A DNA stretch of 64,000 nucleotides from Verrucomicrobiia bacterium (GTDB taxonomy: Bacteria > Acidobacteriota > Polarisedimenticolia > Gp22-AA2): assembly GCA_035638075.1 (NCBI GenBank), contig DASRAU010000021.1, forward strand, positions 73,230 through 137,229, read 5' to 3'. Below the pieces are notes generated by a model, which saw only the letters and a program-made list of their open reading frames with translations, searched no databases and was not told the DNA's origin. This document shows, in pieces, positions 26,602 to 43,345 of the stretch (the stretch's first letter is position 1; the number at the start of each line of letters is the position of its first letter). Position numbers and translations under genes: made by a program.

Positions 26602-27168
26602 TCAGGCGGGAAGGGTCCCGCCGATGGCGGAATGGAGGTAGATGCGGGCCTTCTCCCACTGCCGCTGCACGGTGCGCTCGCTCTGTCCCCACATCTCGCC
26701 GATCTCGGAGAAGGTGAACCCGCAGAAAAACTTCAGATCGACCACCTGCGCCAGCTTCGGCTCGACGGCGGAGAGCCGCTCGAGCGCCTCGCCGACCCGC
26801 ACGAGATCAGGCTCCGCCTCCACCGCGGCGGCGAGCGCCTCGTCGAGCGGCGTCATGTCGATCTCGCCGCCGCGCTTCTCCGCGTGCCGGTCGCGCGCGT
26901 GGTTCAGGATGAGCCCGCGCATGGCGCGCGCGGCATACGCCATGAAGCGGGCCCGGTCGGGGAACTCGGTCCCCTCCCGTCCCGCCATGGCGAGATAGGC
27001 CTCGTGCAAAAGCGTCGTGGTGCCGAGCGTCGGCGCCCCGGAGTTGCGCGCCAGCTGCGCCCGGGCCAGCCGGTGCAGCTCGGTGTAGAGCAGTGCGAAC
27101 AGGGCGGACGCCGCCGTCCCGTCCCCCCTGTCTGCGTTTTCGATGAGCGAAGCGACCGATGAATCCAT
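26602..27168 (-). CDS. ECF-type RNA polymerase sigma factor (TIGR02999-like, kinase-associated)
   Basis: Sigma-70 region 2 (LLHEAYLAM...FMAYAARAMRGLILNHARDRHAEKRGG) and region 4 (VVDLKFFCGFTFSEIGEMWGQSERTVQRQWEKAR). Positioned immediately upstream of the Ser/Thr kinase. Confidence 0.8.
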   Translation of the reverse strand: MDSSVASLIENADRGDGTAASALFALLYTELHRLARAQLARNSGAPTLGTTTLLHEAYLAMAGREGTEFPDRARFMAYAARAMRGLILNHARDRHAEKRGGEIDMTPLDEALAAAVEAEPDLVRVGEALERLSAVEPKLAQVVDLKFFCGFTFSEIGEMWGQSERTVQRQWEKARIYLHSAIGGTLPA

Positions 27169-27341: not shown

Positions 27342-28502
27342 ATGCAATGGCCGGGGACGCCGATCGAGCACCTGTCGAGGTTTCAACCTGCTTTCTGCCC
27401 CAGGCGGGGGTGTCCCGAGCACGTTCGTCTGGCTCCCGGTTTCCGCTTCGAGCGCCATGGCTTCTACAGCACTCGGAGGCGGTGGCGAATCCCGAGGTTC
27501 CGCTGTGTCGCGTGCCGCGCTTCCTTCTCGAGGCAGTCATTCGCCGTGTCCTACTACAGCAAGCGGCCGGAGCTGCTCATTCCGATTGCCGCGGGACTCG
27601 TGGGCGGGTCGGCGCACCGGCAAATCGCCCGCACGCTCGGCTGCGCGCCGTCGACGGTGACGCGAAACGCGGCGCGGCTGGGACGACATGCCGTCCTGCT
27701 GATGGCGCTGACCCGGCGTGAGCTCCCCGGATCGTCGAATGAAGCGTTCGTGTTCGACCATTTCGAGACCTTCGAGTTCACGCAGGATTATCAATTCGGC
27801 GTGGGGACGCTCGTCGGCTCGAAATCGTGGTTCGTGTACGACCTCGACCCCGCACCACACGTGCGCACCGGGCATGTGAGTCCAGCGCAACGTCGCCGAC
27901 TGGATCTGCGGCCACGACGGCCCGGACGCGGAGGCTATCTCGGCTCGAGCAGGAGGGTCTTCCAACGCTTGCGGGACGTGACTTTGCCGGGGACGACCAT
28001 CACCGTCATCGGAGACGGTCACAAGGCCTATGCGCGGGCCCTGCATGACTCGTCCCTGGAGCGGGACATCATTCTCGAGAGCTATCCGAACCCGCCACGG
28101 GGCCCGAAAGGGTCACCGCGAAGCGAAGCGGCGCGACTCCGCGACGAGAAGCTTTTCCCGGTGGATCTGCTGCACAAGATTCTGCGGCACTCGCTGGCGC
28201 ACCAGCGTCGCGAGACCATCGCGTTCGGCCGCCGGCTCAACGCGGTGATGGAACAGATGTTCCTGACCGCCGTGTGGCGCAACTTCGTCAAGAAGAGAAG
28301 CGAGCGGGTGTCGCGGAGCGGCACCCCGGCCATGCGCCTCGGCCTGACGCGCGAACGCTGGCCCTGGTCCCGAGTCTTCTCACGGAGAATCTTCCCGGCG
28401 CGCACGCCCACTCCTTCGACCTGGGCGGAGCTGTATCGGCGCCTCTGGACCAGCCCTCTCTACGAGAACAACACCCGGCACGAGCTGAGACTCGCCTTCT
28501 AG
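27342..28502 (+). CDS. IS1-like DDE transposase (N-terminal zinc ribbon + HTH + catalytic core); possibly degenerate
   Basis: CPRRGCP...RFRCVACRASFS zinc ribbon. HTH AAGLVGGSAHRQIARTLGCAPSTVTRNAARLG resembles IS1 InsA. TITVIGDGHKAY (DG-x-x-x-Y) and ILRHSLAHQRRETIAFGRRLNA resemble the IS1 InsB core. No terminal inverted repeats could be defined by eye. Confidence 0.5.
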   Translation: MQWPGTPIEHLSRFQPAFCPRRGCPEHVRLAPGFRFERHGFYSTRRRWRIPRFRCVACRASFSRQSFAVSYYSKRPELLIPIAAGLVGGSAHRQIARTLGCAPSTVTRNAARLGRHAVLLMALTRRELPGSSNEAFVFDHFETFEFTQDYQFGVGTLVGSKSWFVYDLDPAPHVRTGHVSPAQRRRLDLRPRRPGRGGYLGSSRRVFQRLRDVTLPGTTITVIGDGHKAYARALHDSSLERDIILESYPNPPRGPKGSPRSEAARLRDEKLFPVDLLHKILRHSLAHQRRETIAFGRRLNAVMEQMFLTAVWRNFVKKRSERVSRSGTPAMRLGLTRERWPWSRVFSRRIFPARTPTPSTWAELYRRLWTSPLYENNTRHELRLAF

Positions 28503-28539: not shown

Positions 28540-31500
28540 TCAACCGGCCATCCCCAATCTCGGCGGCACGTTGACGGGCCTCCAGACCTTCAGGTAGAGC
28601 AGCGGCAGTACCAGCAGGTTGAGGAGGGTGGACGACACCAGCCCCCCGACGATCACCACCGCCATCGGATGCTCGATCTCCTGCCCGGCGCGGGCCCCGC
28701 CGACGACCAGGGGGACGAGGGCGAGACCGGTCACGAGCGCGGTCATCAGGACCGGGGCGAGCCGGTCGAGACAGCCGGCGAGCACGAGATCCCGCCCGGG
28801 CGCCATCCCCTCGACCGTCTCGAGGCGGCGGAAGCGCGACACCAGCATCAATCCGTTGCGCACCGAGAGGCCGAACAGGGTGACGAACCCGACGAGCGAG
28901 CCGATGGACAGGCGCCCTCCCGAAAGCGCCGCGGCGGCGACCCCTCCGACCAGCGCCAGGGGCACGTTGGCGAGCATCACGAGCGCCAGGCGCGACGAAC
29001 CCGACTCGAGCAGGAGCACCAGGAAGACCCCGGCGCCGGCGCAGAGGGAGAACAGGAGCAGCTCGCGGCGCGTCTCGCGCTCGACCTCGTACTCCCCGCC
29101 CCAGGCGCGTACGTAGCCTTCCGGGAGGGGCCGCGACTCGACGCGGCGGCGGGCCTCCTCGACGAATCCGCCGATGTCCCGCCCCTCGACCGAGGCGGCG
29201 ACGATCGCCTGCCGCGTCCCCCCTTCGCGCTCGATGGCGGCCGGCTCGCTGCCGATGCTCACCCGCGCCAGCGAGGCCAGCGGCACGCGGCCTCCGTCGG
29301 GGGTGTCGATGGCGAGCGCTTCGATCGCCGACACGTCTCCCGGCGGCCCTTCGCCGGCGCGCACCCAGATGTCGAAGACCCGCTGTCCTTCGAAGACCTG
29401 CCCGGCCCGCACCCCCCACAGCGCGATCGTCACCGCCCGGCGCAGTCCTTCCATGGTCAGCCCGTGCCGCGCCGCCGCCGCCCGATCGAAGGCGATGTTC
29501 ACCTGCGGGATGAAGGCCTGGCGCTCCGCCTGCACCTGCGCCGCCCCCGGCACCGCGGCGAGAGTCGCCGCGTCCCGCTCCGCCTCCGAGCGCAGCACCT
29601 CGAGGTCGGGGCCGGCGAGCCGCAGCACCACCGGCGCCCGCACGCCGGTGATCACCTCCTCCATCCGCTCCCGCAGGAATTGCCTGACGGTGAAGACGAA
29701 CCCGGGGACTTTCTCGAGCCGCCGGCGCACCGCCCTTAGCACCGCGTCGTAGCGGCCGAGGGACGGGTCGAGCGCCAGGAGCAGCTCGCCGTTCTCCGGC
29801 CCCCAGGTGTCTTCCCCCAGCTCGGCGCGCCCCGCCTTGAGCGCCGTCGAGCGCACCCCCGGTACCGTGCGCAGGTTGCCCTCGAGCTCGCGCCCCGCCG
29901 CGACCGAGCGCTCGAGCGCGGTGCCGTACGGGGCGATGAGGTGGACGATGAGGTCCGCCTCCTGGAAATCGGGAAGGAGTTCGACGCCGAAGCGCGGGAC
30001 GAGCAGCGCCGCCGCGGCCACGAGGGCGCCTGTGGCCGCGATCGCCGGCCACGGGCGATGGAGCAGCGGCCGCAGCGCCGCCGCGTAGCCGCGCTTGAGC
30101 GCGTGCAGGAGCGGGCTGCCGCTCCGCGCGGCGCTCTTGTCCGTCAGCAGGAACGACGCCAGGGCCGGGGTCACGGTCACGGCCACGAGGAGCGATGCGA
30201 GCGTGGCGAGGACATAGGCGGCGCCGAGCGGCGCGAACAGGCTCCCCTGCAGCCCGCTCAGGAAGAACAGCGGCGTGACCGCGATCACCACGATGCCGGT
30301 GGCGTGCACGATGGCGCCGCGCACCTCGACCGACGCGGAGAGCAGCACGCCCTGGCGCGGCTCGTCCGTGCCGCGCGTCTGCCGCTCGCGCAGCCGCCGC
30401 AGGATGTTCTCGACGTCGATGATGGCGTCGTCGACCACTTCTCCCAGGGCGATCGCCAGCCCGCCGAGGGTCATCGTGTTGAGCGTCGCCCCCGCGCCCC
30501 GCAGCACGGCGATCGCCGCGAGCAGCGACAGCGGGATGGCGGCCAGGCTGATCGCGGTCGTGCGCAGGTCGAAGAGGAACAGGAACAGCACGATGGTCAC
30601 GAGCAGGGCGCCGGTGAGAAGCGCGTGCCGCAGGTTCCGGATGGCCCGCTCGACGAAGGTGGCCTGCCGGAAAAGATGCGGCGTGAGGGTCACCTGGGGG
30701 GGGAGGGCGCGGCGGATCTCCTCGATCGCCGTCTCCAGTGCCCGGGTCGCTTCGAGGGTGTTGGCGCGCGGCGCCTTGTCGATCTCGAGGATGACGCCGG
30801 GCGTCCCGTTCACCGTGGCGTCGCCGACCTTGTACTCCGCGCCTGCGCGGATGGTGGCGACCTGGTCGAGCCGCACCGGGACGCCGTCCCGAAACGCGAC
30901 GAGCGCGGCGCGCAGGTCGTCGATTGACGCGATGCGTCCCTCGGCGCGGATCGGCAGCGACTGCTCCCCCGTCTCGACGAACCCCGCCGCCGCCAGGGCG
31001 GTGCTGTCCGACGCGGCGGCGACCGCCTGGTCGAGCGACAGGCCGAAGGCGCGCAGCGAAGCGGGAGACAGGAGCACCTGGTCCTGCCTCACCCCCCCGC
31101 CGAAGACGGTGACACGGGCCACGCCGGGTACCGCCAGGAAGCGCGGCTTCAGCGTCCAGTCGGCGAGCGCGCGCAGCTCGAGCGCGTCGAACCCGGCCGC
31201 CCCGGTCAGCCCCACGTCGAGCAGGGTGCTCGACGCCGAGACCGTCGGGGTGATCGCCGGTGGCTCGACGCCGGCCGGCAGCTGGCGCGCCGCGATCGCC
31301 AGCCGCTCGGCGACCGCCTGCCGCGCCTCGGGCACCGAGACGGCGTCGGAGAAAATACAGGTCAGCGCCGAGATCCCGGCCGCCGATGTCGAGCGCATGG
31401 TCCGCAGCCCCGGCGCCCCGTTGATGGCGTGCTCGAGCGGGATGCTGACGAGGGATTCGACCTCGGCCGCCGAGAAGCCGGGGGCCTCGGTCTGGATCGA

Positions 31501-31641
31501 CACCTCGGTCGGAGCGAACTCGGGGAAGACGTCGATGGGCGCCGTCGCCGCCAGGCGCACGCCCGGCAGCAGGAGAATCAGCGCCGCGGCCACGACGATG
31601 CCGCGGTGCGTGAGCGAAAACCCGACGATCCGGGCGAGCAC
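28540..31641 (-). CDS. czcA: Heavy-metal efflux RND transporter, CzcA/CusA family
   Basis: N-terminus MLARIVGFSLTHRGIVVAAALILLL matches the CzcA start. 12-TM RND architecture with two large periplasmic loops over ~1030 aa. Confidence 0.85.
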   Translation of the reverse strand: MLARIVGFSLTHRGIVVAAALILLLPGVRLAATAPIDVFPEFAPTEVSIQTEAPGFSAAEVESLVSIPLEHAINGAPGLRTMRSTSAAGISALTCIFSDAVSVPEARQAVAERLAIAARQLPAGVEPPAITPTVSASSTLLDVGLTGAAGFDALELRALADWTLKPRFLAVPGVARVTVFGGGVRQDQVLLSPASLRAFGLSLDQAVAAASDSTALAAAGFVETGEQSLPIRAEGRIASIDDLRAALVAFRDGVPVRLDQVATIRAGAEYKVGDATVNGTPGVILEIDKAPRANTLEATRALETAIEEIRRALPPQVTLTPHLFRQATFVERAIRNLRHALLTGALLVTIVLFLFLFDLRTTAISLAAIPLSLLAAIAVLRGAGATLNTMTLGGLAIALGEVVDDAIIDVENILRRLRERQTRGTDEPRQGVLLSASVEVRGAIVHATGIVVIAVTPLFFLSGLQGSLFAPLGAAYVLATLASLLVAVTVTPALASFLLTDKSAARSGSPLLHALKRGYAAALRPLLHRPWPAIAATGALVAAAALLVPRFGVELLPDFQEADLIVHLIAPYGTALERSVAAGRELEGNLRTVPGVRSTALKAGRAELGEDTWGPENGELLLALDPSLGRYDAVLRAVRRRLEKVPGFVFTVRQFLRERMEEVITGVRAPVVLRLAGPDLEVLRSEAERDAATLAAVPGAAQVQAERQAFIPQVNIAFDRAAAARHGLTMEGLRRAVTIALWGVRAGQVFEGQRVFDIWVRAGEGPPGDVSAIEALAIDTPDGGRVPLASLARVSIGSEPAAIEREGGTRQAIVAASVEGRDIGGFVEEARRRVESRPLPEGYVRAWGGEYEVERETRRELLLFSLCAGAGVFLVLLLESGSSRLALVMLANVPLALVGGVAAAALSGGRLSIGSLVGFVTLFGLSVRNGLMLVSRFRRLETVEGMAPGRDLVLAGCLDRLAPVLMTALVTGLALVPLVVGGARAGQEIEHPMAVVIVGGLVSSTLLNLLVLPLLYLKVWRPVNVPPRLGMAG

Positions 31642-31652
31642 GGCCGAGGCTC

Positions 31653-32648
31653 CTAGGAGCCGCCGGCATCACCGCCGGCCGGCTCTTCGTCGTCGTCCCC
31701 GGCGAGCCCCTGCCGGGCCTTGAGCCACTCCCCCCAGAGGCGGCTGGCGCCGCGCACCACGACCGACTCGCCCGGCTGGAGGCCGGAGAGGATTTCGCTC
31801 CGTCCGGCCGCCTCGGCCCCGACCGTCACGTCGGCACGCTCGTAGCCGCCGGGGCGGCGCACGAACAGGACGCGTCCCGCCTCGGCGTACAGCAGGGCCG
31901 CCGTCGGGACGCTGAGGGCCTCGCGCTTCGCCACTTCGATGGTCGCCGTGCCGAGGCTCTGCGGGCGCAGGACGCGGCGCGGGTCCTCGACGGCGATCCG
32001 CCCGGTGAGGGTGCGCGTCTGCGGCTTGACGAAGCGGGCGAGGGAGACGACGCGCCCGCGGAAGCGGGCGTCGGGGAGCGACTCGACCGTGATCCAGGCG
32101 GTGTTCCCGGCGCTCACGGCGCTGGCGTGCGCCTCGTCGATCTCGGCCAGCGCCCAGATGGCGGCCTGGCCGCGCGCCGGAGAGTTCCCCGGTCCCAGGC
32201 CGAGGCGATCGAGCGCCGCTTCCGCCCGCTGGCGATCCACCCGCGCCTGCGCCGCCTCCGCCTCGGCCGCCTGCACCGCCTTGGCAGCCACCACCTCGCG
32301 CGCCAGAAGCCCACGGAGCCGCTGCAGCTCGGCGTCGGTGCGAACCTCGCGCGCCTTCGCCGCCTCAAAGTCGAGCCGCGCTTCGATCTCCTCGGGGGTG
32401 TCGGGGGTCGGAGAGAGGCGGCACGGAACCGTCACGCCGACCGCGAACGGTCCGGGCTGCACCACTTCGGTCTCGATCCCGGCGGCCTGCTCGGCCTCGG
32501 GAGTCAAAAGGACGAGCCGCGGCCCCTTCGCACCCTTGTCGTCCGCGGCCTCGTGGTGCTCGTTGTCGCTCTGCGACTCGCGCCGGCAGGCCGGCGTGAT
32601 CGCCGCGACCGCGAGAAAGACCAGGAGGGCCGCGGGCCGGAGCCTCAT
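31653..32648 (-). CDS. czcB: Efflux RND periplasmic adaptor (membrane fusion protein), CzcB-like
   Basis: Lipoprotein-type signal (LLVFLAVAAITPAC). Coiled-coil region then beta-barrel/MP domains (RVVSLARFVKPQTRTLTGRIAV). ATGA overlap with czcC. Confidence 0.75.
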   Translation of the reverse strand: MRLRPAALLVFLAVAAITPACRRESQSDNEHHEAADDKGAKGPRLVLLTPEAEQAAGIETEVVQPGPFAVGVTVPCRLSPTPDTPEEIEARLDFEAAKAREVRTDAELQRLRGLLAREVVAAKAVQAAEAEAAQARVDRQRAEAALDRLGLGPGNSPARGQAAIWALAEIDEAHASAVSAGNTAWITVESLPDARFRGRVVSLARFVKPQTRTLTGRIAVEDPRRVLRPQSLGTATIEVAKREALSVPTAALLYAEAGRVLFVRRPGGYERADVTVGAEAAGRSEILSGLQPGESVVVRGASRLWGEWLKARQGLAGDDDEEPAGGDAGGS

Positions 32649-33904
32649 CGCTCCTCCGTGCGGGCGTCGCCGCCGAGGGCGCGGGTGAGCCGGGCCGCCT
32701 GCAGCGCGGCCTCGAGACGGGCGCGCAACGACTCCTCGCGCAGCGCCAGGACGGTGCGCCTGGCGTCGAGATAGTCGAGCAGGCCCGTCTCGCCCGCCTG
32801 GTACGCCTGGCGCGCCAGGTCGAGCATGGTCTCGGCGTCCTTCAGGAGATCCCCGGTGAGGAGCGTCTGCTGATCGCGCGCCGCCCGGAAGCGGTGCCAG
32901 GTCTCGGCGACGGTGCGCGTCGCCTGCAGCCGCTCCGCCTCCACGTCCGACTTCGCCGCGTCGCGCGCCGCCTCGGCCGCGGCGATGCCCCCCTGGTTGC
33001 GATCCCACAGCGGCAGGCGCACGGCGAGCCCGAGCCCCACGTACGACTGCCCTTCTTCGCGTCCCAGCGTCGGGCCCAGGGCGAACTCCGGGCGGCGCTC
33101 GGCGCGGGCGCGCTCGGCGCCATGGGCGGCCGCTTCCGCCCGGTGCGCCGCGGCGGCGAGGCGCGGCTCCGACGCGAGCGCTCTCGCCACGAGATCGTCG
33201 AGCGCCTCTTCCGCCGTGGTGTCCCCCGGCGGGGCGACGAAGCGGGCCGGAGCGTCAGCCGGACGACCGAGGAGCAGGTTCAAGGACGCCGTCTCGGCCC
33301 CGAGGTCGCCCCGCGCCCGGGCGGCCTGCGCCTCCGCCCGGCTGGACTCGATCGCCGCCCGGCGCGCCTCGAAGGGCGGCGCGTCGCCGGCCGCGACCCG
33401 CGCCTCCGCCCCCTGCCGCAGCTCCTGCGCCGCCTGCAGGTCCTCTTCCTTCACCCCGGCGATGGCCGCCGCGAAGGCGGCGCGCATCCAGGCGCTGCGA
33501 ATCTCCAGGAGGAGATCGCAGCGGACCTGCTCGCGCGTCCGCTCCGCCGCGGCGAGGCGCTCCTGAGCCTCGGCGCGCGCCGCGTCACGCAGCTTTCCCC
33601 ACGGCAGCGGCTGCCGCAGCGACAGGACCGTCTCCTTCGGCCCGTCGCCGTTGGTGAACCGGGTCCCGTCGAGGACCAGGTCGGGATTGGGATAGAGACC
33701 GACCTGCTCGAGGCGTCCCTGCGCCTCGCGCACCTGCGCCTCGGCGGCGAGAAGCGACGGGCTGGCCGCCTCCCCCAGCCGTTCCGCGTCGGCGAGGGTC
33801 AGCGGTGCGTCGGGCTCAGGGGCCGCGATCGCCGGCGAGGCGACGACGAGCGCGAGAAGGAAGGCAGCGGACCAGCCGGCCCCTGAAGGCCGGCTCCGGA
33901 TCAC
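32645..33904 (-). CDS. czcC: Outer-membrane efflux protein (TolC/CzcC family)
   Basis: GTG start gives the signal peptide MIRSRPSGAGWSAAFLLALVVASPAIA. Two OEP repeats with the characteristic Ala/Glu/Arg-rich coiled coils. Confidence 0.75.
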   Translation of the reverse strand: MIRSRPSGAGWSAAFLLALVVASPAIAAPEPDAPLTLADAERLGEAASPSLLAAEAQVREAQGRLEQVGLYPNPDLVLDGTRFTNGDGPKETVLSLRQPLPWGKLRDAARAEAQERLAAAERTREQVRCDLLLEIRSAWMRAAFAAAIAGVKEEDLQAAQELRQGAEARVAAGDAPPFEARRAAIESSRAEAQAARARGDLGAETASLNLLLGRPADAPARFVAPPGDTTAEEALDDLVARALASEPRLAAAAHRAEAAAHGAERARAERRPEFALGPTLGREEGQSYVGLGLAVRLPLWDRNQGGIAAAEAARDAAKSDVEAERLQATRTVAETWHRFRAARDQQTLLTGDLLKDAETMLDLARQAYQAGETGLLDYLDARRTVLALREESLRARLEAALQAARLTRALGGDARTEER

Positions 33905-34650
33905 GATGCGGCGCGACGCGCGTGCCCGCCCAGGGCGCCGCGCTTCTTGAGAGCGCGCGCGGTCGCGTAGCCGAGCAGGGCGAGCCCCCAGACGCCCGCG
34001 AGCAGCACGACGCGCGCCTTGAAGGCCTCGGGCTCGAGCTGGAGGCGCGACTCCAGCGTCACGATGAGCACGAGCATCGTCACCCACGCGAAGGTGGAGC
34101 CGTACTCCTTGCGCACCACCTTGGCCCAGTCGAAGGAGAGCCCTTCGAAGGTGCGCCCGAGACCGCGCAGGTCCGGCAGGAAGCGCGGCACCCGGCGCAG
34201 GTAGTCCTCGTAGGCCGCGCCGAAGCGGCCGGCGAGGAACGCCTCCTCGGCCAGCGTGATGGCGAGGTAGGCGAAGACGAAGAAGCCGATGCCGAGACCG
34301 ACCACCCACGGCGAGCCGTGCACCAGGAACAGCCCCGCCAGGATGAGGACGTTGCCGACATACAGCGGGTTGCGGCAGTGTGCGAAGAGCCCGTCGGTCA
34401 CGAGATCGTCGGCGTGGATGCGGCGGTTCTGGCCGCCCCGCTTGATGTAGGCGAAGCCGATGACCGCCACCCGCAGCCCCTGCCCCAGGACGAGGAGCAG
34501 CAGGCCGAGCGCGTCGCCGTCATCGGGACCGCCGGCCCGCGGCCACGGCCGCGGGGCGAACCCGAAGACGAGCAGCACCTGCACCGCCGGGAAGAGGATC
34601 TCCCGCCAGCGGAAGAAGAAGTTCCCGGCCGGAACCAGGAGGCGCTTCAC
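33901..34650 (-). CDS. Integral-membrane SAM-dependent methyltransferase of the ICMT/PEMT family
   Basis: C-terminal ICMT signature LVTDGLFAHCRNPLYVGNVLILAG...EEAFLAGRFGAAYEDYLRRVPRFLP and several TM helices. GTG start overlaps the cmoA stop. The start is tentative. Confidence 0.6.
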   Translation of the reverse strand: MKRLLVPAGNFFFRWREILFPAVQVLLVFGFAPRPWPRAGGPDDGDALGLLLLVLGQGLRVAVIGFAYIKRGGQNRRIHADDLVTDGLFAHCRNPLYVGNVLILAGLFLVHGSPWVVGLGIGFFVFAYLAITLAEEAFLAGRFGAAYEDYLRRVPRFLPDLRGLGRTFEGLSFDWAKVVRKEYGSTFAWVTMLVLIVTLESRLQLEPEAFKARVVLLAGVWGLALLGYATARALKKRGALGGHARRAAS

Positions 34651-35501
34651 GTCGACGCCACGATGCCGCAGAAGTTGTACCACTTGAAGAAGGTGTCGGC
34701 CTGCGAGAAGCCGCAGCGCGCCAGGAGCTCCCGGTTCTCGTCGAGACGGTAGGGGATGAGGACGTTCTCCAGCGCCTCGCGCTTCTGCGCGATCTCGAGG
34801 CGCGTGTAGCCGTTGCGCTCCTTCAGGCCGTAGTAGTGGTCGATCCACAGGCGGTTGAAGAGGGGCGTGTCCCCCAGCACCTTCTCGACCATGATGAGAC
34901 AGCCGCCGTCCACGAGCCCGCGCCGCACGTCGTGCAGCAGGCGCTCGCGCTGCAGCGGCCGGACGAACTGCAGCGTCAGGACCAGGAGCGCGACCGACAC
35001 CCCCTCGAGCGGCAGGCTCTTGTTCAGGTCGGCGCACAAAAGCTCGACCGGGCGGCGCACCTTGCGCTCGGCGAGCTTGGTCCGCGCCTTCGCCAGCATC
35101 TCCTCCGACGAGTCGACCCCGATGAAACGCAGATCGAGATCGGCGGGCAGCAGGCGGTCGAGCGCCACGATCGAGGTCGCGGTGGAGCAGCCGAGATCGA
35201 CGACGGCGGTGCCGGGCCGCGCGAAATCGCACGCCAGCTCGGCGACCATCTCCTGGATCACCCGGTAGTGCGGCACCGAGCGGTCCAGCATGTCGTCGAA
35301 GACCGCGGCGGTGTCGCGCCCGAAATCGAAGTCCTCGATCTTGCCGCGCTTCTCCGCGAACACCTGGTCGCGGGCGACTTCGGGCGACATCGCCTCGCGC
35401 ACCACCTGGTCGCGCGCGGGCGCCGGGACGCGCTGGGTGGGATCCGCCAGGGCGGTCTCGCGCTCGAGTGCCGGGCGGGGGGGACGGGAGTGTGTGTCCA
35501 T
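34647..35501 (-). CDS. cmoA: Carboxy-S-adenosyl-L-methionine synthase (CmoA-like)
   Basis: Collinear with E. coli CmoA end to end: FDFGRDTAAVFDDMLDRSVPHYRVIQEMV (cf. [29 protein letters not shown]), VVDLGCSTATS, and the C-terminal NGYTRLEIAQKREALENVLIPYRLDEN...FFKWYNFCGIVA block. RBS GAGGTGA before ATG 35501. Alternative start at 35390. Confidence 0.75.
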   Translation of the reverse strand: MDTHSRPPRPALERETALADPTQRVPAPARDQVVREAMSPEVARDQVFAEKRGKIEDFDFGRDTAAVFDDMLDRSVPHYRVIQEMVAELACDFARPGTAVVDLGCSTATSIVALDRLLPADLDLRFIGVDSSEEMLAKARTKLAERKVRRPVELLCADLNKSLPLEGVSVALLVLTLQFVRPLQRERLLHDVRRGLVDGGCLIMVEKVLGDTPLFNRLWIDHYYGLKERNGYTRLEIAQKREALENVLIPYRLDENRELLARCGFSQADTFFKWYNFCGIVAST

Positions 35502-35506
35502 GCGGC

Positions 35507-36631
35507 TCACCTCGTGTGAAGGGTCTTCGTCGCGGTCGTGGCGAGGCCCAGCCCCTCCACCAGGGCGGAGTAGGCGGGCAGATCGAGCTGCTGGAAGCCG
35601 TCGGAGAGGGCCCGGTCGGGAGCGTCGTGCACCTCCACCATGATCCCGTCGGCCCCGGCCGCGAGCGAGGCGCGGCCGCAGGGCAGGACGATGTCGCGCC
35701 GCCCCAGCGCGTGGCTCAGGTCGACGATCACCGGGAGCGAAGTCTCGAGCTTGAGGATCGGGATGGCCGAGATGTCGAGGGTGTTGCGCGTCGCCCGCTC
35801 GAAGGTGCGGATGCCGCGCTCGCACAGGATCACCCGGTCGTTGCCGTGCGACAGGATGTACTCCGCCGACAGCAGCAGCTCCTCGAGCGTGGCGCTGAAG
35901 GCGCGCTTGAGCAGGACCGGCTTGCCGATCTTCCCCAGCGCCTTGAGCAGCTCGGTGTTGTACATGTTGCGCGCCCCGACCTGGAGCATGTCGCAGTACT
36001 CGGCCACCAGCGGCAGGGTGGCGACGTCGAGGACCTCGGTGACCGTCGCCAGCCCGTGCCTGCGTCCGACCCGCTGCATCAGCCGCAGCCCCTCCTCGCG
36101 CAGCCCCTGGAAAGAGTAGGGGTTGGTGCGCGGCTTGAAGGCGCCGCCGCGCAGGAGGGTCGGCACCGGCATCGAGGCCAGGTGCGCCGCCACCCGCTCC
36201 ATCTGCTCCTCATCCTCGACGGCACAGGGGCCCGCGAACATCACCGGCTTGCCTCCGCCGATGGCCACGTTCCCCACCAGGAGACCCCCGGGCCCGACCA
36301 GCCCGCGCTGCCGCACCTTGAGGGCGTCCCGGCGCGTCTTCTCCTGCACGCCGAGGGAGGTCCGGAAGATCGCCTTGAACACCTCGCCGATCTCGAACGG
36401 GCCGAAAGCGCCGCTCGGGCGCGACTGCAGCGCCTGCAGCATCTCGTCCTCACGCCCGGGATCGTGCCCGTCGAGCCCCTGCGCCTGCTTCAGGCGCGCG
36501 ATCGCCACCACGACGTCGGCCCGCTCCTTGAGCAGGTCGAGCAGCTTGTCGTTGAGACGGTCGATCTCGGCGCGCAGCCCCTTGAGGTCGCGATCTCCTC
36601 CCTTCACGTTGCCTCCCTTCGTCCGGCTCAC
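35507..36631 (-). CDS. Bifunctional chorismate mutase (AroQ) / 3-deoxy-7-phosphoheptulonate synthase (type I-beta, AroA(G)-like)
   Basis: N-terminal AroQ domain (LKGLRAEIDRLNDKLLDLLKERADVVVAIARLK...DPGREDEML) fused to a KDO8PS-like DAHP synthase (PVMFAGPCAVEDEEQ...LLRGGAFKPRTNPYSFQGL...GADGIMVEVH). Confidence 0.85.
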   Translation of the reverse strand: MSRTKGGNVKGGDRDLKGLRAEIDRLNDKLLDLLKERADVVVAIARLKQAQGLDGHDPGREDEMLQALQSRPSGAFGPFEIGEVFKAIFRTSLGVQEKTRRDALKVRQRGLVGPGGLLVGNVAIGGGKPVMFAGPCAVEDEEQMERVAAHLASMPVPTLLRGGAFKPRTNPYSFQGLREEGLRLMQRVGRRHGLATVTEVLDVATLPLVAEYCDMLQVGARNMYNTELLKALGKIGKPVLLKRAFSATLEELLLSAEYILSHGNDRVILCERGIRTFERATRNTLDISAIPILKLETSLPVIVDLSHALGRRDIVLPCGRASLAAGADGIMVEVHDAPDRALSDGFQQLDLPAYSALVEGLGLATTATKTLHTR

Positions 36632-38160
36632 GCCGACACCACGCGCGGACCGCTGACCTGGATGGACAGCACCCGATCGGGACCGAGGCTCGGCTCGACC
36701 CGGTAGCCCAGGGTGGAGCAGAGCGAACGGACGAGCGTCAGCCCCAGACCGGCATGCTGGCCGCCTCCGCCGCGCGCCTCGTCCTTGCGCCAGAAGCGAT
36801 CGAACAGCCGTCCGACGTCCTCCTGGCGCAGCGCGGGGGCCGGGTTCGACACCGACAGGCGGAAGCCGGGCTCCTCGACGCTGACGGCGCAGGCGACCGC
36901 CGATCCCTGCGGCGCGTACTCGATGGCGTTGCCGAGCAGGTTCTGCAGGATGAGCCGCAGCATGCCGACGTCGGTCACGAGCACCCCCTGGCCGCGCGCC
37001 TGCAGATCGAGCGACAGGCCGCGCTCCGCGGCGCGCGCCTTCAGGCGCTCCCAGACGCCGCGCGTCAGGTCCTCGAGCACCGCCTCCTCCGGATTGAGCG
37101 TGTCCGCCCCGGCCTCGGAGCGCGCCAAGGCGAGCAGGTTGGCGATGAGCCCTTCCATCTGCCCGGCGACGTGCTCGACGTCGCCGAAGAAGGCGCGGAT
37201 CGCCTCGGTGTCCCCCGGCCAGCGGGCCGCCACCTCGGCGAGGTTCCGGAGCTCGGCCACCGGCGTGCGCAGCTCGTGCGCCACGTTGCTCGAGAAGAGA
37301 CGCTCGCGCTCGAGCGCCTGCTTGAGACGTTCGAGGAGATCGTCGACGCGGCAGGCCAGCGGCGTCACCTCCACCGGCAGCCCGGCCGTGCCGACGCGGC
37401 TGTCGAGGTTGCCCGGCTCGAGCGCCGCCACCCGGTCGGCCAGCCGCTCGATCGGCGCGACCGTCGAGGAGACCGCCCAGCGGACGACGACGATGAGACC
37501 CGCGACGAAGGCGATGGCGGCGCCGCCCAGGACCGCGCGCACCCGGCCGATCGCCATGCGGAGATCGACGACGTCGCGCGCCAGCGCCAGCGTCATGGTC
37601 GTCCTGAGGCTCGCGGGCAGCGACGCCGCGTCGACATAGTGCTCCTCGCCCCGGGCGTCGCGCACGACATAGCGCGGCTCGAATTCGAGCAGGATGTACC
37701 GCCCTTCGCGTCCGTCGGGCAGGCGCCGGTTGTAGAGGCGCGGCATGGCGCCGTCTCCACCGTGGCGCTTCAGGTGCTCCCCTTCGCCGAGGGAGGGGGA
37801 CGTCCGCCAGCTGGCGCCGCGCCCGTCCCAGACCTCGTAGTACTCGGGGTTGCGGGCGCGCTGGAACTCCGGCAGGGCGCTGCCGACGGCCTCGAACTCC
37901 AGCTCCTCGCCGTTGCGCTCCGTGAGGGTGGCGATGACCCGCGCCTGTTCCGCCAGGTCGGCGTCGAAATCGCGCCGCAGCCGCGACTCCAGGACGAGGT
38001 CCGCCATGAGCCCCAGGCCCAGGGCGAGCGCCGCCGCCCCGCCGCCGGTCAGGAGTCCGAGCCGGCGCCGCAGCGACCAGTCGCCCGGGCGCGCCGGCTT
38101 ACTCGACGACATAGCCGTGGCCGCGGCGTGTCTGGATGATTCCGGGGCTCTCGGGGACAC
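36628..38160 (-). CDS. Heavy-metal sensor histidine kinase (CusS/CzcS family)
   Basis: Two TM helices flank a periplasmic domain carrying the YYEVWDGRG motif typical of heavy-metal sensor kinases. HisKA box SSNVAHELRTPVAEL. HATPase_c (NLLGNAIEYAP...GLGLTLVRSL). Start could instead be 38112. Confidence 0.8.
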   Translation of the reverse strand: MSPRAPESSRHAAATAMSSSKPARPGDWSLRRRLGLLTGGGAAALALGLGLMADLVLESRLRRDFDADLAEQARVIATLTERNGEELEFEAVGSALPEFQRARNPEYYEVWDGRGASWRTSPSLGEGEHLKRHGGDGAMPRLYNRRLPDGREGRYILLEFEPRYVVRDARGEEHYVDAASLPASLRTTMTLALARDVVDLRMAIGRVRAVLGGAAIAFVAGLIVVVRWAVSSTVAPIERLADRVAALEPGNLDSRVGTAGLPVEVTPLACRVDDLLERLKQALERERLFSSNVAHELRTPVAELRNLAEVAARWPGDTEAIRAFFGDVEHVAGQMEGLIANLLALARSEAGADTLNPEEAVLEDLTRGVWERLKARAAERGLSLDLQARGQGVLVTDVGMLRLILQNLLGNAIEYAPQGSAVACAVSVEEPGFRLSVSNPAPALRQEDVGRLFDRFWRKDEARGGGGQHAGLGLTLVRSLCSTLGYRVEPSLGPDRVLSIQVSGPRVVSA

Positions 38161-38767
38161 TCTGCAGCTTCTTGCGCAGGCCGCTGACGAGCACCTCGAC
38201 GATGTTGCTGGTGACGTCGCTCGTGCCGTGGTACAGGCGGTCGAGGATCTGCTCCTGGGAGGTGACCCGGCCGCGGCGCAGGACGAGCAGCTCGAGCACG
38301 GCGTACTCGCTCGGCGTCAGGTGCAGCGGCTCGCCGTCGCGGAAGGCGCGCTTCGCCGCCGTGTCCACGGCGACGGGACCGCACAGGATGCGGTTCTCCT
38401 CGCGGGCATGGGCGCGCCGCAGCAGCGCCTGCAGCCGGGCGCACAGCTCGTCGAAGGAGAACGGCTTGACGAGGTAGTCGTCGGCGCCGCTCTCGAGTCC
38501 ACGGACGCGATCCTCCACCCGGTCCCGGGCGGACAGGATCAGCACCTGCGCCGTCGACCCCTGACCCCGGGCCCGGCGCAGGACCTCGAGGCCGGGAAGC
38601 CCCGGGAGCATGAGGTCGAGGACGACGGCATCCGGCTCGCGCTCGCGCAGCAGGGTGAGCCCCTCCTCGCCGTTCGAGGCGGTCTCCACCTCCCACCCGA
38701 GCTGCTCCAGCCCGTGCCGCAGCGAACGGCGCAGCCGTTCGGAATCCTCGATCACCAGGACGCGCAT
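38099..38767 (-). CDS. OmpR-family response regulator (heavy-metal CusR/CzcR-like)
   Basis: Receiver (MRVLVIEDSERL..DAVVLDLMLPG..KPF) plus winged-helix output (LTPSEYAVLELLVLRRGRVTSQEQILDRLY...TRRGHGY). Confidence 0.85.
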   Translation of the reverse strand: MRVLVIEDSERLRRSLRHGLEQLGWEVETASNGEEGLTLLREREPDAVVLDLMLPGLPGLEVLRRARGQGSTAQVLILSARDRVEDRVRGLESGADDYLVKPFSFDELCARLQALLRRAHAREENRILCGPVAVDTAAKRAFRDGEPLHLTPSEYAVLELLVLRRGRVTSQEQILDRLYHGTSDVTSNIVEVLVSGLRKKLQSVPESPGIIQTRRGHGYVVE

Positions 38768-38806
38768 GGACACCCCCGCGGACCACCGAGACTAGCACCG
38801 GCACAT

Positions 38807-38826
38807 GAAGATTCCATGAAATCTTC
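38807..38826. promoter_or_regulatory. Near-perfect 20-bp inverted repeat (gaagattCcatgAaatcttc) in the upstream region of the czcR-like operon; candidate operator
   Basis: Palindrome arms gaagatt/aatcttc sit 40-60 nt upstream of the regulator start codon, in the only AT-rich stretch nearby. Confidence 0.3.
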
Positions 38827-38909: not shown

Positions 38910-40091
38910 TCAGGCGGCCGGGTAGGGTTCGGCGACGCTGGTGGTGGTGCGGGCGCCGCGCTCCTCGAGCTCGCGGAAGAACCGGGCCGCGTCGACCGCC
39001 CGCTCCGGGGGCAGGACTCCTTTTTCCTTGACCTGGCCCTGCGCCAGCCAGCGGGCGACGATGGCCGGGGGGGATCCGACGAGCAGGGTGCCGCCGGAGA
39101 TGCCCCACTCCTTGTGCGGCCAGCAGGTGGTCTCGACCCGGCCGACGGCCGGCTTGCCGCCGCGCTCGCCGCGCACCTCGGTGACGATGTCCTTGAAGCC
39201 GAGGCTCTTCGTCCGCTCGATCTGCGGCGAGCGCTTCAGGACCTCGACGAGGACGTCGATCGGCCGCACGCTCCCGCCGCGCACCGCCACCGGGTCCTTC
39301 GACGCGAGCCCGAGCTGCGCCAGGAACTGCAGCTGCCGCAGCGCCTTCTCGGAGTAGCCGAAGAAGGAGATCTTGAAGAAGCAGTCCTTGATGCCCTTCG
39401 AAGCGTAGGTCAGCGGGAGGGTCGCCACCTCGGAGTGCAGCGACAGGTGCACCTTCGAGACGCCGATCGGCTCCTGGAAGCGGTACAGCTCCTCCTCGCC
39501 GAGGGCCGGGGTCTCCGCGAAAGCGCCGTCACGGAAGACCATCGGCGGCTGGGTGATCTCGTCGAAGATCGTCTGGATCGAGTAGGCCCAGGCGAGCGAA
39601 TCGCCCTGGTCGGGCGTGGCGCCGTTGTAGATGCGGATCGACTCGACACGGTCGAAGGAGTCCGCCAGGACGCGCGCCTGCACGTTGGCGATGCCGGGGC
39701 ACGAACCGAGGCCGAGGATCGCGACGATGCCGGCGCTCCTGAACTTCGCATCCAGCTCGAGCTGCTTGCGCGTCGTGTGGAAGAGCCCCCCGAGATCGAC
39801 GTACGGCACGCGCGCGTCGAGGCAGGCCTCCATGATCGGCAGGTTGAAGTAGTACTGCACCGAGTTGATGACCGCCCCGGCCCCGGTCAGGAGCTTCACG
39901 AGAGCCACGTGGTCGGTGACGTCGATCTTCACAGCGCTGACGCCGGGCCGGCCGAACGACGCGGCCGCCTTCTGCGCCCCCTCGAGGTCGAGGTCGGCGA
40001 GGACCAGCTCCTTCACATTGCGGTCGGAGGCCAGGTCGCGGCCGATGGCGCGGCCGATGATGCCGGCTCCTCCGAGGACGACGATGCGCAT
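38910..40091 (-). CDS. Saccharopine dehydrogenase-like NAD(P)-binding oxidoreductase
   Basis: Rossmann start MRIVVLGGAGIIGRAIGRDLA and the full-length saccharopine-dehydrogenase domain pattern. Confidence 0.75.
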   Translation of the reverse strand: MRIVVLGGAGIIGRAIGRDLASDRNVKELVLADLDLEGAQKAAASFGRPGVSAVKIDVTDHVALVKLLTGAGAVINSVQYYFNLPIMEACLDARVPYVDLGGLFHTTRKQLELDAKFRSAGIVAILGLGSCPGIANVQARVLADSFDRVESIRIYNGATPDQGDSLAWAYSIQTIFDEITQPPMVFRDGAFAETPALGEEELYRFQEPIGVSKVHLSLHSEVATLPLTYASKGIKDCFFKISFFGYSEKALRQLQFLAQLGLASKDPVAVRGGSVRPIDVLVEVLKRSPQIERTKSLGFKDIVTEVRGERGGKPAVGRVETTCWPHKEWGISGGTLLVGSPPAIVARWLAQGQVKEKGVLPPERAVDAARFFRELEERGARTTTSVAEPYPAA

Positions 40092-40228
40092 GGACGGCGG
40101 ATGCTACCGCGCCGTCGCGCGGCCGGTCAATCACGCCCCGGCGGCCAATCACTCCGGAGCATGAAACAGGTTGCAGGCCGGTTCGATTGGGCGTAAGAGA
40201 CTCGGCGATTCTCGAGGAGGCTGCCGTC

Positions 40229-43200: not shown

Positions 43201-43345
43201 GCCCGCGGCCGCGTACGACGACATCCGCCCCGATCCAGCACAGGGCACCGCGTACTTCTATCTCGTGCGCGGGCGGAATGCCTGCGGCGCTGCGACGTTC
43301 GGAATGGACGGCGGGGCCGACGCGCTGGCCTGCAGCGGACCCTGA
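40229..43345 (+). CDS. Secreted fusion protein: YVTN-type beta-propeller + di-haem cytochrome c peroxidase-like domain, Cys-rich C-terminus
   Basis: RBS GAGGAGG. Signal peptide MSLPRSMRLSPGRRLVVATAVLFLATTAAPRA. Propeller-like repeats in the first ~480 aa. Two CxxCH haem motifs (CSSCH, CVQCH). MHWRGDRATMNAFNATF resembles the CCP W-D-G-R-A box. Confidence 0.65.
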   Translation: MSLPRSMRLSPGRRLVVATAVLFLATTAAPRADYVNFEAPHVHPIALTPAGTRLLAVNTPDATLEVFDVAADGSLTPHAPIPVGLEPITVHARTETEAWVVNYLSDTVSIVDLAQGFVVRTIAVGDEPTDVVFAAGKAFVSVSQEDAVKVWSLAALDQPPQQIDVFNLRTQALAVSNDGTRVYAVARDSGNQTTVVNGGLVRNLMPWGLPSGRVGINFPRCSGAHPTYPPLPPGVVRNPALTDPSDGIPKVSVLAKWDDGTASWRDDAFQNWNPCLAIRLPDHDLFVINPGDAVAPASIAAQVDHLGTTLFDVSVNPGNGRIYVPNTEALNFTRFEPRLRGHVVDNRVSIVDPSAGNAVIIVDLNAHIDRGSDPATNLMERLASVSQPGMTVWSADGSAGYMTAIGSRKVFRVNGACTSPGCIFGPNRAAPDAVTVGEGPTGAALLESANRLYVLNRFANTIAVVDTASFARIGESPLHDPSSPTIRYGRRFLYDGIISSAHGDAACSSCHLFGDKDAMAWDLGDPAGALVPYHTPGDNVRFVKLDGASPPNMVECDPQPPGMGCSNHAGFDPQKGPMVTQTLRGMVEPMHWRGDRATMNAFNATFVNLMGTADVGPINGQPAGLSAEDMELFRRFALGMILPPNPYRGADDSMPNTLVPIPKHPGTGNPTAGMTNFLTTAHELSLRCVQCHSSPSGTSGGKPEGINPGDPPDAAAALINGSTPLTKSIHNDLKIPHLRNLYTKAGPFFGLSTAPRDNKYGFGTGHDGAVADVLSFLTLAGFNFSDQALKDMAAFMMYFPGDVKPSVGQNLTLPAGAPPTGNAAAEALLATLLQSGNLADSNRHCELTVAARSGGRERTWHLDGGIASGGLFVSDVAGEVPVATADLRANAEGPLTFLCATIGSGVRLGGDRDLDTHLNGEDCAPGDAGSFAPVPETDDLAMTASPFTSLAWSDQAGASGAGIVYDVASGNLDDLRTGGTVFATACLAGGLPAAAYDDIRPDPAQGTAYFYLVRGRNACGAATFGMDGGADALACSGP

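Follow-up and report, generated by a model that had tools for sequence, protein, structure and literature searches.

A CmoA homologue and an LmtA-like membrane enzyme in an acidobacterial operon: a candidate carboxymethylation module of the cell envelope

We analysed a 64-kb window (64,000 nucleotides of contig DASRAU010000021.1, with ~70% G+C; the window below always means this whole stretch) in which co-directional genes on the minus strand encode an OmpR-type two-component system, a bifunctional chorismate mutase/DAHP synthase, a homologue of CmoA (the synthase of carboxy-S-adenosyl-L-methionine, Cx-SAM), an integral-membrane enzyme of the PEMT/ICMT superfamily (ICMT, isoprenylcysteine carboxylmethyltransferase) and the three components of a resistance-nodulation-division (RND) efflux pump. 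The best overall explanation, to which we assign a probability of roughly 0.55, is that this is a stress-regulated envelope-remodelling operon which has a self-contained carboxymethylation module as its core. All of the evidence is comparative or predicted.

According to this proposal, the chorismate mutase domain would raise the local level of prephenate, and the CmoA homologue would convert prephenate and S-adenosyl-L-methionine (SAM) to Cx-SAM. Cx-SAM would then be used, in place of SAM, by the membrane enzyme, an LmtA-like protein of ICMT fold whose gene is translationally coupled to that of CmoA. At the inner membrane, on its cytoplasmic side, this enzyme would transfer the carboxymethyl group to an anionic membrane lipid head group; by analogy with LmtA, the acceptor would most likely be a lipid A or Kdo2-lipid A phosphate. 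Expression would be driven by the two-component system encoded upstream, probably by way of the tandem direct repeat that adjoins the -10 box, with a periplasmic cation or another envelope stress as the likely signal. The RND pump, on the same transcript, would be an accessory with a history of repeated recruitment in other lineages.

The CmoA homologue and its membrane-bound partner across phyla

At least 590 species-representative genomes were found to encode relatives when searched with a profile of the membrane protein, and the 80 best loci were fetched; the gene calls in these loci are heuristic and the taxonomic labels of the metagenome-assembled genomes (MAGs) were used as given. In 78 of the 80 loci, which represent at least 13 phylum-level groups, the gene immediately upstream of that of the membrane enzyme, and of the same strand, encodes a CmoA homologue 45-66% identical to that of the window. 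Carriers are found in three classes of Acidobacteriota, in Gemmatimonadota, Planctomycetota, Verrucomicrobiota, Bacteroidota and Nitrospirota, and also in Alpha-, Gamma- and "Delta"-proteobacteria, Eisenbacteria, Hydrogenedentota, Armatimonadota, Binatota and Krumholzibacteriia, the closest relatives of the window being labelled Candidatus Polarisedimenticolia (Acidobacteriota). The membrane protein of the window is itself identical (100%) to one encoded on a 210-kb metagenome-assembled contig. Among the 71 loci where the junction could be measured, 26 have a 4-nt overlap of the CmoA and membrane-enzyme genes, and in most of the others the two lie within ~70 nt of each other. One of the two exceptions to this adjacency starts at a contig end (L021) and the other is genuinely without CmoA (L040). 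The family of the membrane enzyme is sharply bounded: it has 371 representative clusters at E <= 1e-30, where the superfamily has 26,608 at E <= 1e-3.

Three loci call for separate mention. L040 (8802-10696) is the only assessable locus in which the chorismate mutase/DAHP synthase gene directly precedes the ICMT-like gene, with CmoA absent between them; CmoA may be encoded elsewhere in this genome or may have been lost. A single frame spanning CmoA and the ICMT-like enzyme (L019:9134-10726) was not counted as a true fusion because its junction resembles a frameshift in a long-read MAG. The pair is also carried by Planctomycetales bacterium ZRK34 (L048; CP050848.1, 215421-236137), apparently a cultured isolate, in which genetic work and lipid analysis would be practicable.

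The CmoA homologue of the window scored 207.7 bits with the TIGR00740 profile, above the cut-off of 193.3, and 145.9 bits with the E. coli-type CmoA model NF011995, below the cut-off of 285, which places it in a divergent clade. Its identity to the E. coli enzyme (4GEK) is 34% (E = 1.4e-40), and the CmoA structures of E. coli and H. influenzae align with it from end to end (E ~1e-40). In CmoA, Arg199 forms a salt bridge with the carboxylate of the cofactor and sets the enzyme apart from ordinary methyltransferases, while SAM is bound by Tyr39, Asp62, Gly64, Phe137 and Glu164 (PMC3663124). All six residues are kept in the window protein and are invariant in the ICMT-linked CmoA sequences that could be extracted from the related loci (71/71). 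Judged by these residues, the homologue looks catalytically competent as a Cx-SAM synthase. Its family membership, together with the synteny and fusions with chorismate mutase that are described below, makes it very probable that it produces Cx-SAM from locally boosted prephenate.

The protein encoded just before CmoA in the window matched NF009239 with 439 bits (cut-off 279); its CM_2 domain occupies residues 19-97 (profile positions 1-80 of 80) and its DAHP_synth_1 domain residues 121-352 (profile positions 9-252 of 270). A gene of this bifunctional type precedes CmoA in 27 related loci, and a stand-alone CM_2 gene of ~110 aa does so in at least six others (L015, L020, L039, L062, L076 and L085). 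A chorismate mutase of one or the other kind precedes CmoA in about a third of the loci. In at least five representative clusters (P0169, P0172, P0192, P0193 and P0214), a C-terminal CM_2 domain is fused to the membrane enzyme itself. For two of them the contig was identified (L091:1197-3098 and L093:171-2079), and there the order is permuted: the ICMT-chorismate mutase fusion comes first and the next gene, in both cases, is a CmoA homologue (46% identical, with the KREALENV motif kept). A FabA-like gene is located downstream in L091. The fusion of a membrane "methyltransferase" with a chorismate mutase is hard to explain unless the cofactor of the former is made from prephenate. It also places the C terminus of the membrane enzyme, and by extension presumably its cofactor site, in the cytoplasm.

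The sole long-established role of CmoA is in tRNA modification (PMC3663124, PMC4482062), and the homologue could in principle feed the synthesis of cmo5U in tRNA by way of a distant CmoB, the membrane protein being a plain SAM methyltransferase that shares the operon. We regard this as very unlikely. What speaks against it is the strict adjacency of the two genes over so many phylum-level groups, with stop and start codons that often overlap, and the fusions of the membrane enzyme to chorismate mutase would be senseless for a methyltransferase that uses SAM only. In a tblastn search with E. coli CmoB, neither the window nor any of 85 loci gave a match at E < 1e-3, and no CmoB was found within ~10 kb of the pair in any locus searched, whereas the cmoA and cmoB genes overlap in E. 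coli itself.

Because of the near-obligate adjacency to CmoA, the chorismate mutase fusions and the lack of a nearby CmoB, the membrane enzyme probably consumes Cx-SAM. A first-pass annotation of the window had suggested such a dedicated route, from prephenate through Cx-SAM to a membrane enzyme. The conservation of the pair, the CmoA residues and the arrangement of the chorismate mutase genes all back this suggestion. The Cx-SAM-specific residues that it had named as a check are present, Arg199 included; the cmoA and ICMT-like genes do travel together; the prephenate source that it had seen beside CmoA often accompanies them, even as a fused domain; and its remark that cmoB is missing nearby extends from the window to the related loci.

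The membrane enzyme and its putative acceptor

The membrane enzyme matched PF04191 (PEMT) with 47 bits, against a cut-off of 25, while its scores were below the cut-off for PF04140 (18.7 versus 24 bits) and for NF040696, the model of protein-S-isoprenylcysteine O-methyltransferase proper (35.7 versus 160 bits). Of the profile searches proposed with the first-pass annotation, those with TIGR00740 and PF04191 thus gave scores above the cut-off and that with PF04140 did not. The best NCBIfam match was the LmtA model TIGR04571, at 83.8 bits and below its cut-off of 325. LmtA was also the best curated match for each of the 19 family members tested (best E = 4.8e-35), with the models of ICMT proper and of MddA well behind. 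NCBIfam has no model for the CmoA-linked family and, since no curated family reaches its cut-off, we treat it as a distinct family and not as LmtA. Among its members, one of 442 aa has a C-terminal, peptidoglycan-binding domain of the OmpA family (P0223) and one of 507 aa is an apparent tandem of two PEMT/ICMT domains (P0133).

The C-terminal cofactor motif R-x-P-x-Y-x-G ... E-E-x2-L-x3-F-G-x2-Y-x2-Y is present in the window enzyme and aligns with those of the archaeal Ma-ICMT and of beetle ICMT. The AF2 model of the enzyme had a pLDDT of 87.3 and a pTM of 0.85, and its top Foldseek match in the PDB was Ma-ICMT (4A2N; probability 1.00, TM-score 0.41/0.51), the modest TM-score being due to extra helices. 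By counting along the alignment, the invariant Arg60 corresponds to residue 173 of beetle ICMT, which we take to be the arginine with which that enzyme binds the carboxylate of its substrate; this correspondence suggests an anionic acceptor. Arg16, Arg71-Gly72-Gly73 and Lys181 are invariant and specific to the family, and are candidates for binding the extra carboxylate of Cx-SAM.

LmtA methylates the 1-phosphate of lipid A in Leptospira (PMC4402001). Lipid A modification also appears in the genomic context of the pair. In Candidatus Brocadia carolinensis (L071; AYTS01000035.1, 5437-18574), the pair is located inside twelve co-directional genes, in the order response regulator, histidine kinase, GT2, LAB_N, CmoA, ICMT-like enzyme, two ArnT-like PMT_2 proteins, ArnB-like DegT aminotransferase, ArnC-like GT2 and ArnA-like formyltransferase/epimerase, a string which is that of an arn-type lipid A modification operon. 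Genes of the GT2, LAB_N or ArnT-like type are found directly beside the pair in four other loci, from Planctomycetota (L072), Phycisphaeraceae (L024), Gammaproteobacteria (L052) and L063, and there are none in the window. A Pfam tally of 195 immediate neighbours revealed no further universal or dominant partner family, so the acceptor should be a common cell component. An LptB-like ABC ATPase, present in 13 loci, was discarded as a partner since its scattered offsets and strands indicated generic ABC similarity. On the strength of the fold, the closest family and the genomic context, an envelope lipid head group is, on balance, the favoured acceptor. The relatedness to LmtA, the conserved Arg60 and the arn context point to a phosphate of lipid A in particular, and this narrower assignment is tentative.

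An amine could be the acceptor instead, through N-carboxymethylation of phosphatidylethanolamine, of another aminolipid or of an undecaprenyl-phosphate-linked amino sugar (Und-P-Ara4N), by which a cationic amine would become a glycine-like, metal-chelating zwitterion. PF04191, the best Pfam match, is named after an N-methyltransferase, and in L071 and L072 the pair lies among genes for the making and transfer of an amino sugar on a polyprenyl carrier (DegT, GT2, LAB_N and PMT_2). By what is established for the Arn pathway, substrates of this kind are present on the cytoplasmic side of the membrane. However, PF04191 is a broad family whose name says little about the substrate, the closest curated family for 19 of 19 members is a phosphate O-methyltransferase, and most loci are without amino-sugar genes, all of which makes an amine acceptor improbable.

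Operon layout, two-component system and RND pump

The gene string and family assignments of the first-pass annotation were confirmed, every one of them, by the domain searches (Table 1), and its count of nine genes was corrected to eight, the number in its own list. Its description of the junctions as 4-nt overlaps or a 5-nt gap applies to five of the seven. GTGA overlaps are found between the kinase and chorismate mutase/DAHP synthase genes, between the CmoA and ICMT-like genes and between the latter and the gene of the outer-membrane efflux protein (OEP), and an ATGA overlap between the OEP gene and that of the membrane-fusion protein (MFP); the chorismate mutase/DAHP synthase and CmoA genes are joined by a GTGA overlap if CmoA starts at GTG, or separated by 5 nt if it starts at ATG. 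The other two junctions are a 14-nt overlap between the response regulator and kinase genes (~20 nt in relatives) and an 11-nt gap between the MFP and RND permease genes. All eight genes are presumably co-transcribed.

Table 1. Features of the operon in the window, with the evidence for each assignment
Feature	Position	Strand	Basis
Operon of 8 co-directional genes	38767-28540	minus	Gene calls
OmpR/PhoB-family response regulator, 222 aa	38099-38767	minus	Response_reg + Trans_reg_C
Membrane sensor histidine kinase with periplasmic sensor domain, 494 aa	36628-38112	minus	HAMP, HisKA, HATPase_c; weak 2CSK_N
Bifunctional chorismate mutase/DAHP synthase, 374 aa; putative prephenate supply	35507-36631	minus	CM_2 + DAHP_synth_1
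CmoA-type carboxy-S-adenosyl-L-methionine synthase, 284-287 aa	34647-35510 (GTG start) or 34647-35501 (ATG start)	minus	TIGR00740
PEMT/ICMT-superfamily integral-membrane enzyme, LmtA-like, 249 aa; proposed Cx-SAM-dependent carboxymethyltransferase	33901-34650	minus	PF04191
Outer-membrane efflux protein (OEP), TolC/CzcC-like, 419 aa; accessory	32645-33904	minus	PF02321 OEP, E = 3.8e-46
RND periplasmic adaptor (MFP), 331 aa; accessory	31653-32648	minus	HlyD_D23
RND permease, 1033 aa; accessory, recruited repeatedly	28540-31641	minus	ACR_tran, 794.7 bits
Likely autoregulated promoter	38789-38821	minus	Direct repeat + -10-like box, conserved in relatives

The operon had also been described as a heavy-metal czcRS ... 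czcCBA module, of the CusRS/CzcRS type, split by the three central genes. The best NCBIfam match of the response regulator was indeed a heavy-metal model (TIGR01387), at 192.5 bits versus a cut-off of 279.2, with PhoB, QseB and PmrA scoring nearly as high. The kinase scored 185.2 bits with the heavy-metal kinase model TIGR01386 (cut-off 292.55), the permease 680.2 bits with the CusA/CzcA model TIGR00914 (cut-off 701.45) and the adaptor 95 bits with the CzcB/NccB model TIGR00999, well under its cut-off of 319. As these scores are below the heavy-metal cut-offs, we did not file the proteins as CzcRS or CzcA. The sensor domain of the kinase has no recognised metal-binding motif.

Comparison with the closest relatives showed which genes stay together. 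In L090, where the membrane enzyme is 64% identical to that of the window, the order is response regulator, kinase, chorismate mutase/DAHP synthase, CmoA and PEMT enzyme, followed by unrelated genes, with no RND gene. L089 (84% identical), the contig of which begins inside the kinase gene, has the same order from the kinase onwards, also followed by unrelated genes and also without RND. L087 (81% identical) has only the adaptor and RND genes of the pump. The OEP gene is absent from all three relatives, and all three pump genes are found in the window and in L001. The core is thus made of the two-component system and the trio of chorismate mutase/DAHP synthase, CmoA and membrane enzyme, and the pump is a variable addition at the 3' end.

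This variability bears directly on the reading of the operon as a czcRS-czcCBA heavy-metal operon with an insertion of three unrelated metabolic genes. That reading agrees with the best profile matches of the regulator, kinase and permease, which are to heavy-metal families, and with the tight, co-directional packing of the eight genes. It is nevertheless highly unlikely: the two-component system remains with the CmoA module in L089 and L090, which have no czc genes, and in L087, which has czcBA only; it adjoins the CmoA/ICMT-like pair in other phyla in loci without any pump; and the heavy-metal family scores are all below the curated cut-offs. Response regulator and kinase genes are found near the pair in about 16 of the 80 loci, and full-length orthologues of the kinase, sensor domain included (33-38% identity), adjoin it in L009, L024, L076 and L085.

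The RND permease of the window has ALGEVVDDAIIDVEN as its motif in transmembrane helix 4 (TM4; window positions 30271-30651), presumably neither a CzcA-type nor a CusA-type motif. The RND proteins linked to the module in Acidobacteriota (window and L087), Planctomycetota (L009 and L024) and Alphaproteobacteria (L026 and L083) share the TM4 motif ALGEVVDDAIID[V/T]EN, which by sequence marks a specific RND subfamily recurring beside the module in three phyla; more distant RND genes of other loci have a AIGLVIDDAVVMVEN-type motif. The order in L009 is two-component system, CmoA, ICMT-like enzyme, OEP, adaptor and RND. An RND gene is also found downstream of the CmoA and ICMT-like genes in the gammaproteobacterial loci L064 and L066, the second of which has an OEP gene as well.

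The recurrence of this orthologous subfamily beside the module could mean that a small molecule, such as a thiol or sulfide (as for MddA), a metalloid or a xenobiotic, is carboxymethylated, and that the pump exports either the product or the unmodified toxicant in a detoxification-efflux unit. In line with this, 7 of the 19 family members also match the model of the methanethiol S-methyltransferase MddA, and the best profile matches of the two-component system are to heavy-metal sensors. The MddA matches are weak, however (best E = 3.6e-7, versus 4.8e-35 for LmtA), the pump is present in only ~10% of the loci and is missing from L089 and L090, the Pfam tally of the 195 neighbours contains no ars, mer or tellurite genes, and the arn-type context points to lipid A. 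Arsenic or metalloid carboxymethylation was considered on its own and set aside because the neighbour genes that would support it are absent. We therefore judge a detoxification-efflux unit to be a poor candidate for the function of the operon.

Upstream of the response regulator gene of the window is a tandem direct repeat, TTTCATG (38821-38815) and CTTCATG (38810-38804), 11 bp from centre to centre, followed by a -10-like TAGTCT at 38794-38789. The pattern of the repeat occurs once in 64 kb, versus 0.05 occurrences expected. Alignment with L087 and L090 showed that YTYCAK-N5-CTTCAK and an invariant GTGCTAGTCT, ~10 bp downstream, are kept. Tandem half-sites beside a -10 box are the typical layout of OmpR/PhoB-type activators, and the repeat is a likely, autoregulatory binding site of the OmpR-type regulator. 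A 20-bp palindrome at 38807-38826, which the first-pass annotation had put forward as the operator, does exist (18 of 20 positions self-complementary, unique in the window and without a match in shuffles) and overlaps the region of the repeat. Neither L087 nor L090 keeps its arms, and it was rejected as the operator in favour of the direct repeat and -10-like box, which both relatives do keep. A promoter consensus scan gave no sigma-70-type matches, and the terminator-like matches all fell inside coding regions and were not informative. From the type of two-component system and its association with the pump and with arn genes, the inducing signal is possibly a cation or another envelope stress.

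Several points weigh against the proposed carboxymethylation of an envelope lipid. The similarity to LmtA is one of relatedness by sequence and not of shared substrate, the Arg71-Gly-Gly loop was modelled with low confidence, and the preference for Cx-SAM over SAM is deduced solely from genomic context. The 80 loci are the top-ranked matches and not a random sample of the family, and a CmoB gene may be present elsewhere in the carrier genomes, the search having covered the window and 85 loci. About 85% of the loci, and the window, are without lipopolysaccharide (LPS) or arn genes nearby, and the repeated link to one RND subfamily could mean a soluble, exported product instead. Carboxymethylated lipid A is not reported in the literature searched, which covered few subscription journals. 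The main weakness is that carboxymethylation of a phosphate keeps its net negative charge, so that a benefit against cations or cationic peptides is not obvious. A carboxymethyl phosphodiester might alter cation selectivity or provide an attachment point for further groups, a role that 5-carboxymethylcytosine has in phage DNA (PMC12783734).

Some neighbouring genes of the window are also worth recording. An ECF (extracytoplasmic function) sigma factor gene (26602-27168, minus strand) and then a gene for a 904-aa Ser/Thr kinase with TPR repeats (23883-26597, minus strand) lie beyond the pump; in L089 the corresponding pair directly follows the PEMT gene. Between the RND and ECF sigma genes, on the opposite strand, is a 386-aa open reading frame with no Pfam match (27342-28502, plus strand). 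L089 is without both this frame and the pump, and the frame may be a remnant of the element that brought the pump. On the other side of the operon, a gene for a probably secreted 1052-aa protein with two CxxCH haem motifs (CSSCH and CVQCH) and a weak match to a beta-propeller Pfam family (40187-43345, plus strand) is transcribed away from a saccharopine-dehydrogenase-like gene (38910-40091). No tRNA genes and, at gathering thresholds, no Rfam families were found anywhere in the window.

Relation to known systems and implications

The reported consumers of Cx-SAM are CmoB, TglF, MccB (through its C-terminal domain) and the phage enzyme CmoX (PMC10491745, PMC12783734). The system described here resembles the CmoA/CmoB system of E. 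coli, which makes cmo5U in tRNA, in that a CmoA-type synthase with conserved cofactor residues would act on prephenate and SAM and in that its gene is translationally coupled to that of the Cx-SAM consumer. It differs from it in the divergence of CmoA, in the dedicated chorismate mutase, in the partner, which has an integral-membrane ICMT fold whereas CmoB is a soluble Rossmann-fold enzyme, and in the acceptor, presumably a lipid and not tRNA. A CmoA homologue beside a repurposed methyltransferase that transfers a carboxymethyl group is also found in TglE/TglF (3-thiaglutamate), MccS/MccB C-terminal domain (microcin C) and phage CmoA/CmoX (5-carboxymethylcytosine) (PMC10491745, PMC12783734). 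In these three pairs, the acceptor enzymes have soluble class I or DNA C5 methyltransferase folds and act on peptides, nucleotides or DNA; none is membrane-bound, has its own prephenate supply or is under a two-component system.

LmtA of Leptospira, the closest characterised family, aligns with the window enzyme over residues 8-204 and shares its membrane architecture of the ICMT type; LmtA acts on an anionic lipid head group at the inner membrane. Unlike the family described here, which has Arg16, Arg71-Gly-Gly, Lys181 and the pairing with CmoA, LmtA uses SAM and transfers a methyl group. With the PmrAB- and ParRS-type regulons, where arn-type lipid A modification and sometimes an RND pump are under a two-component system, the operon shares an OmpR-family two-component system upstream of putative envelope-modifying genes, the co-recruitment of an RND pump and, in L071, L072 and L024, the presence of arn-like genes in the same operon as the module; ParRS controls both arn and mexXY. 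It differs from them in that the window has no arn genes and in that carboxymethylation is not known for such a regulon. The CzcCBA/CusCBA pumps with CzcRS/CusRS have the same three components, outer-membrane protein, adaptor and RND permease, and give the best profile matches, but these matches are under the cut-offs, the TM4 motif is ALGEVVDDAIIDVEN, and the pump is dispensable in relatives, where the two-component system stays with CmoA and the ICMT-like enzyme.

In the literature searched, again with few subscription journals, neither CmoA nor Cx-SAM is linked to ICMT, PEMT, LmtA, lipid A or a dedicated chorismate mutase. What appears to be new here is a pair of Cx-SAM synthase and putative transferase in which the transferase is of a new enzyme class and the acceptor is probably a lipid. 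A fuller version of the proposal, in which the enzyme would be the first integral-membrane Cx-SAM-dependent carboxymethyltransferase, modifying a lipid A phosphate or comparable lipid under a PmrAB-like switch and together with a dedicated RND subfamily, is doubtful as a whole.

Cx-SAM has been held to be a niche cofactor with four uses, in tRNA, one amino acid derived from a peptide made on the ribosome and modified after translation (RiPP), one microcin and phage DNA. If the proposal is right, its chemistry would extend to membranes, in at least 590 species and at least 13 phylum-level groups, and a new class of LPS or lipid modification would exist in hundreds of environmental Gram-negative species, predicted to show up as a mass shift of +58.005 Da that has not been seen before in the envelope. 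The attachment of a chorismate mutase to a membrane enzyme would be explained, with a link to aromatic amino-acid metabolism, and a testable function would be available for a very large number of genes labelled "isoprenylcysteine carboxylmethyltransferase family protein" in bacteria without prenylated proteins. Such an enzyme would also be a natural membrane carboxymethyltransferase for bio-alkylation. The two-component system, the arn-type operon and the RND links suggest that the module may be part of a new branch of the response of soil and sediment bacteria to envelope stress.

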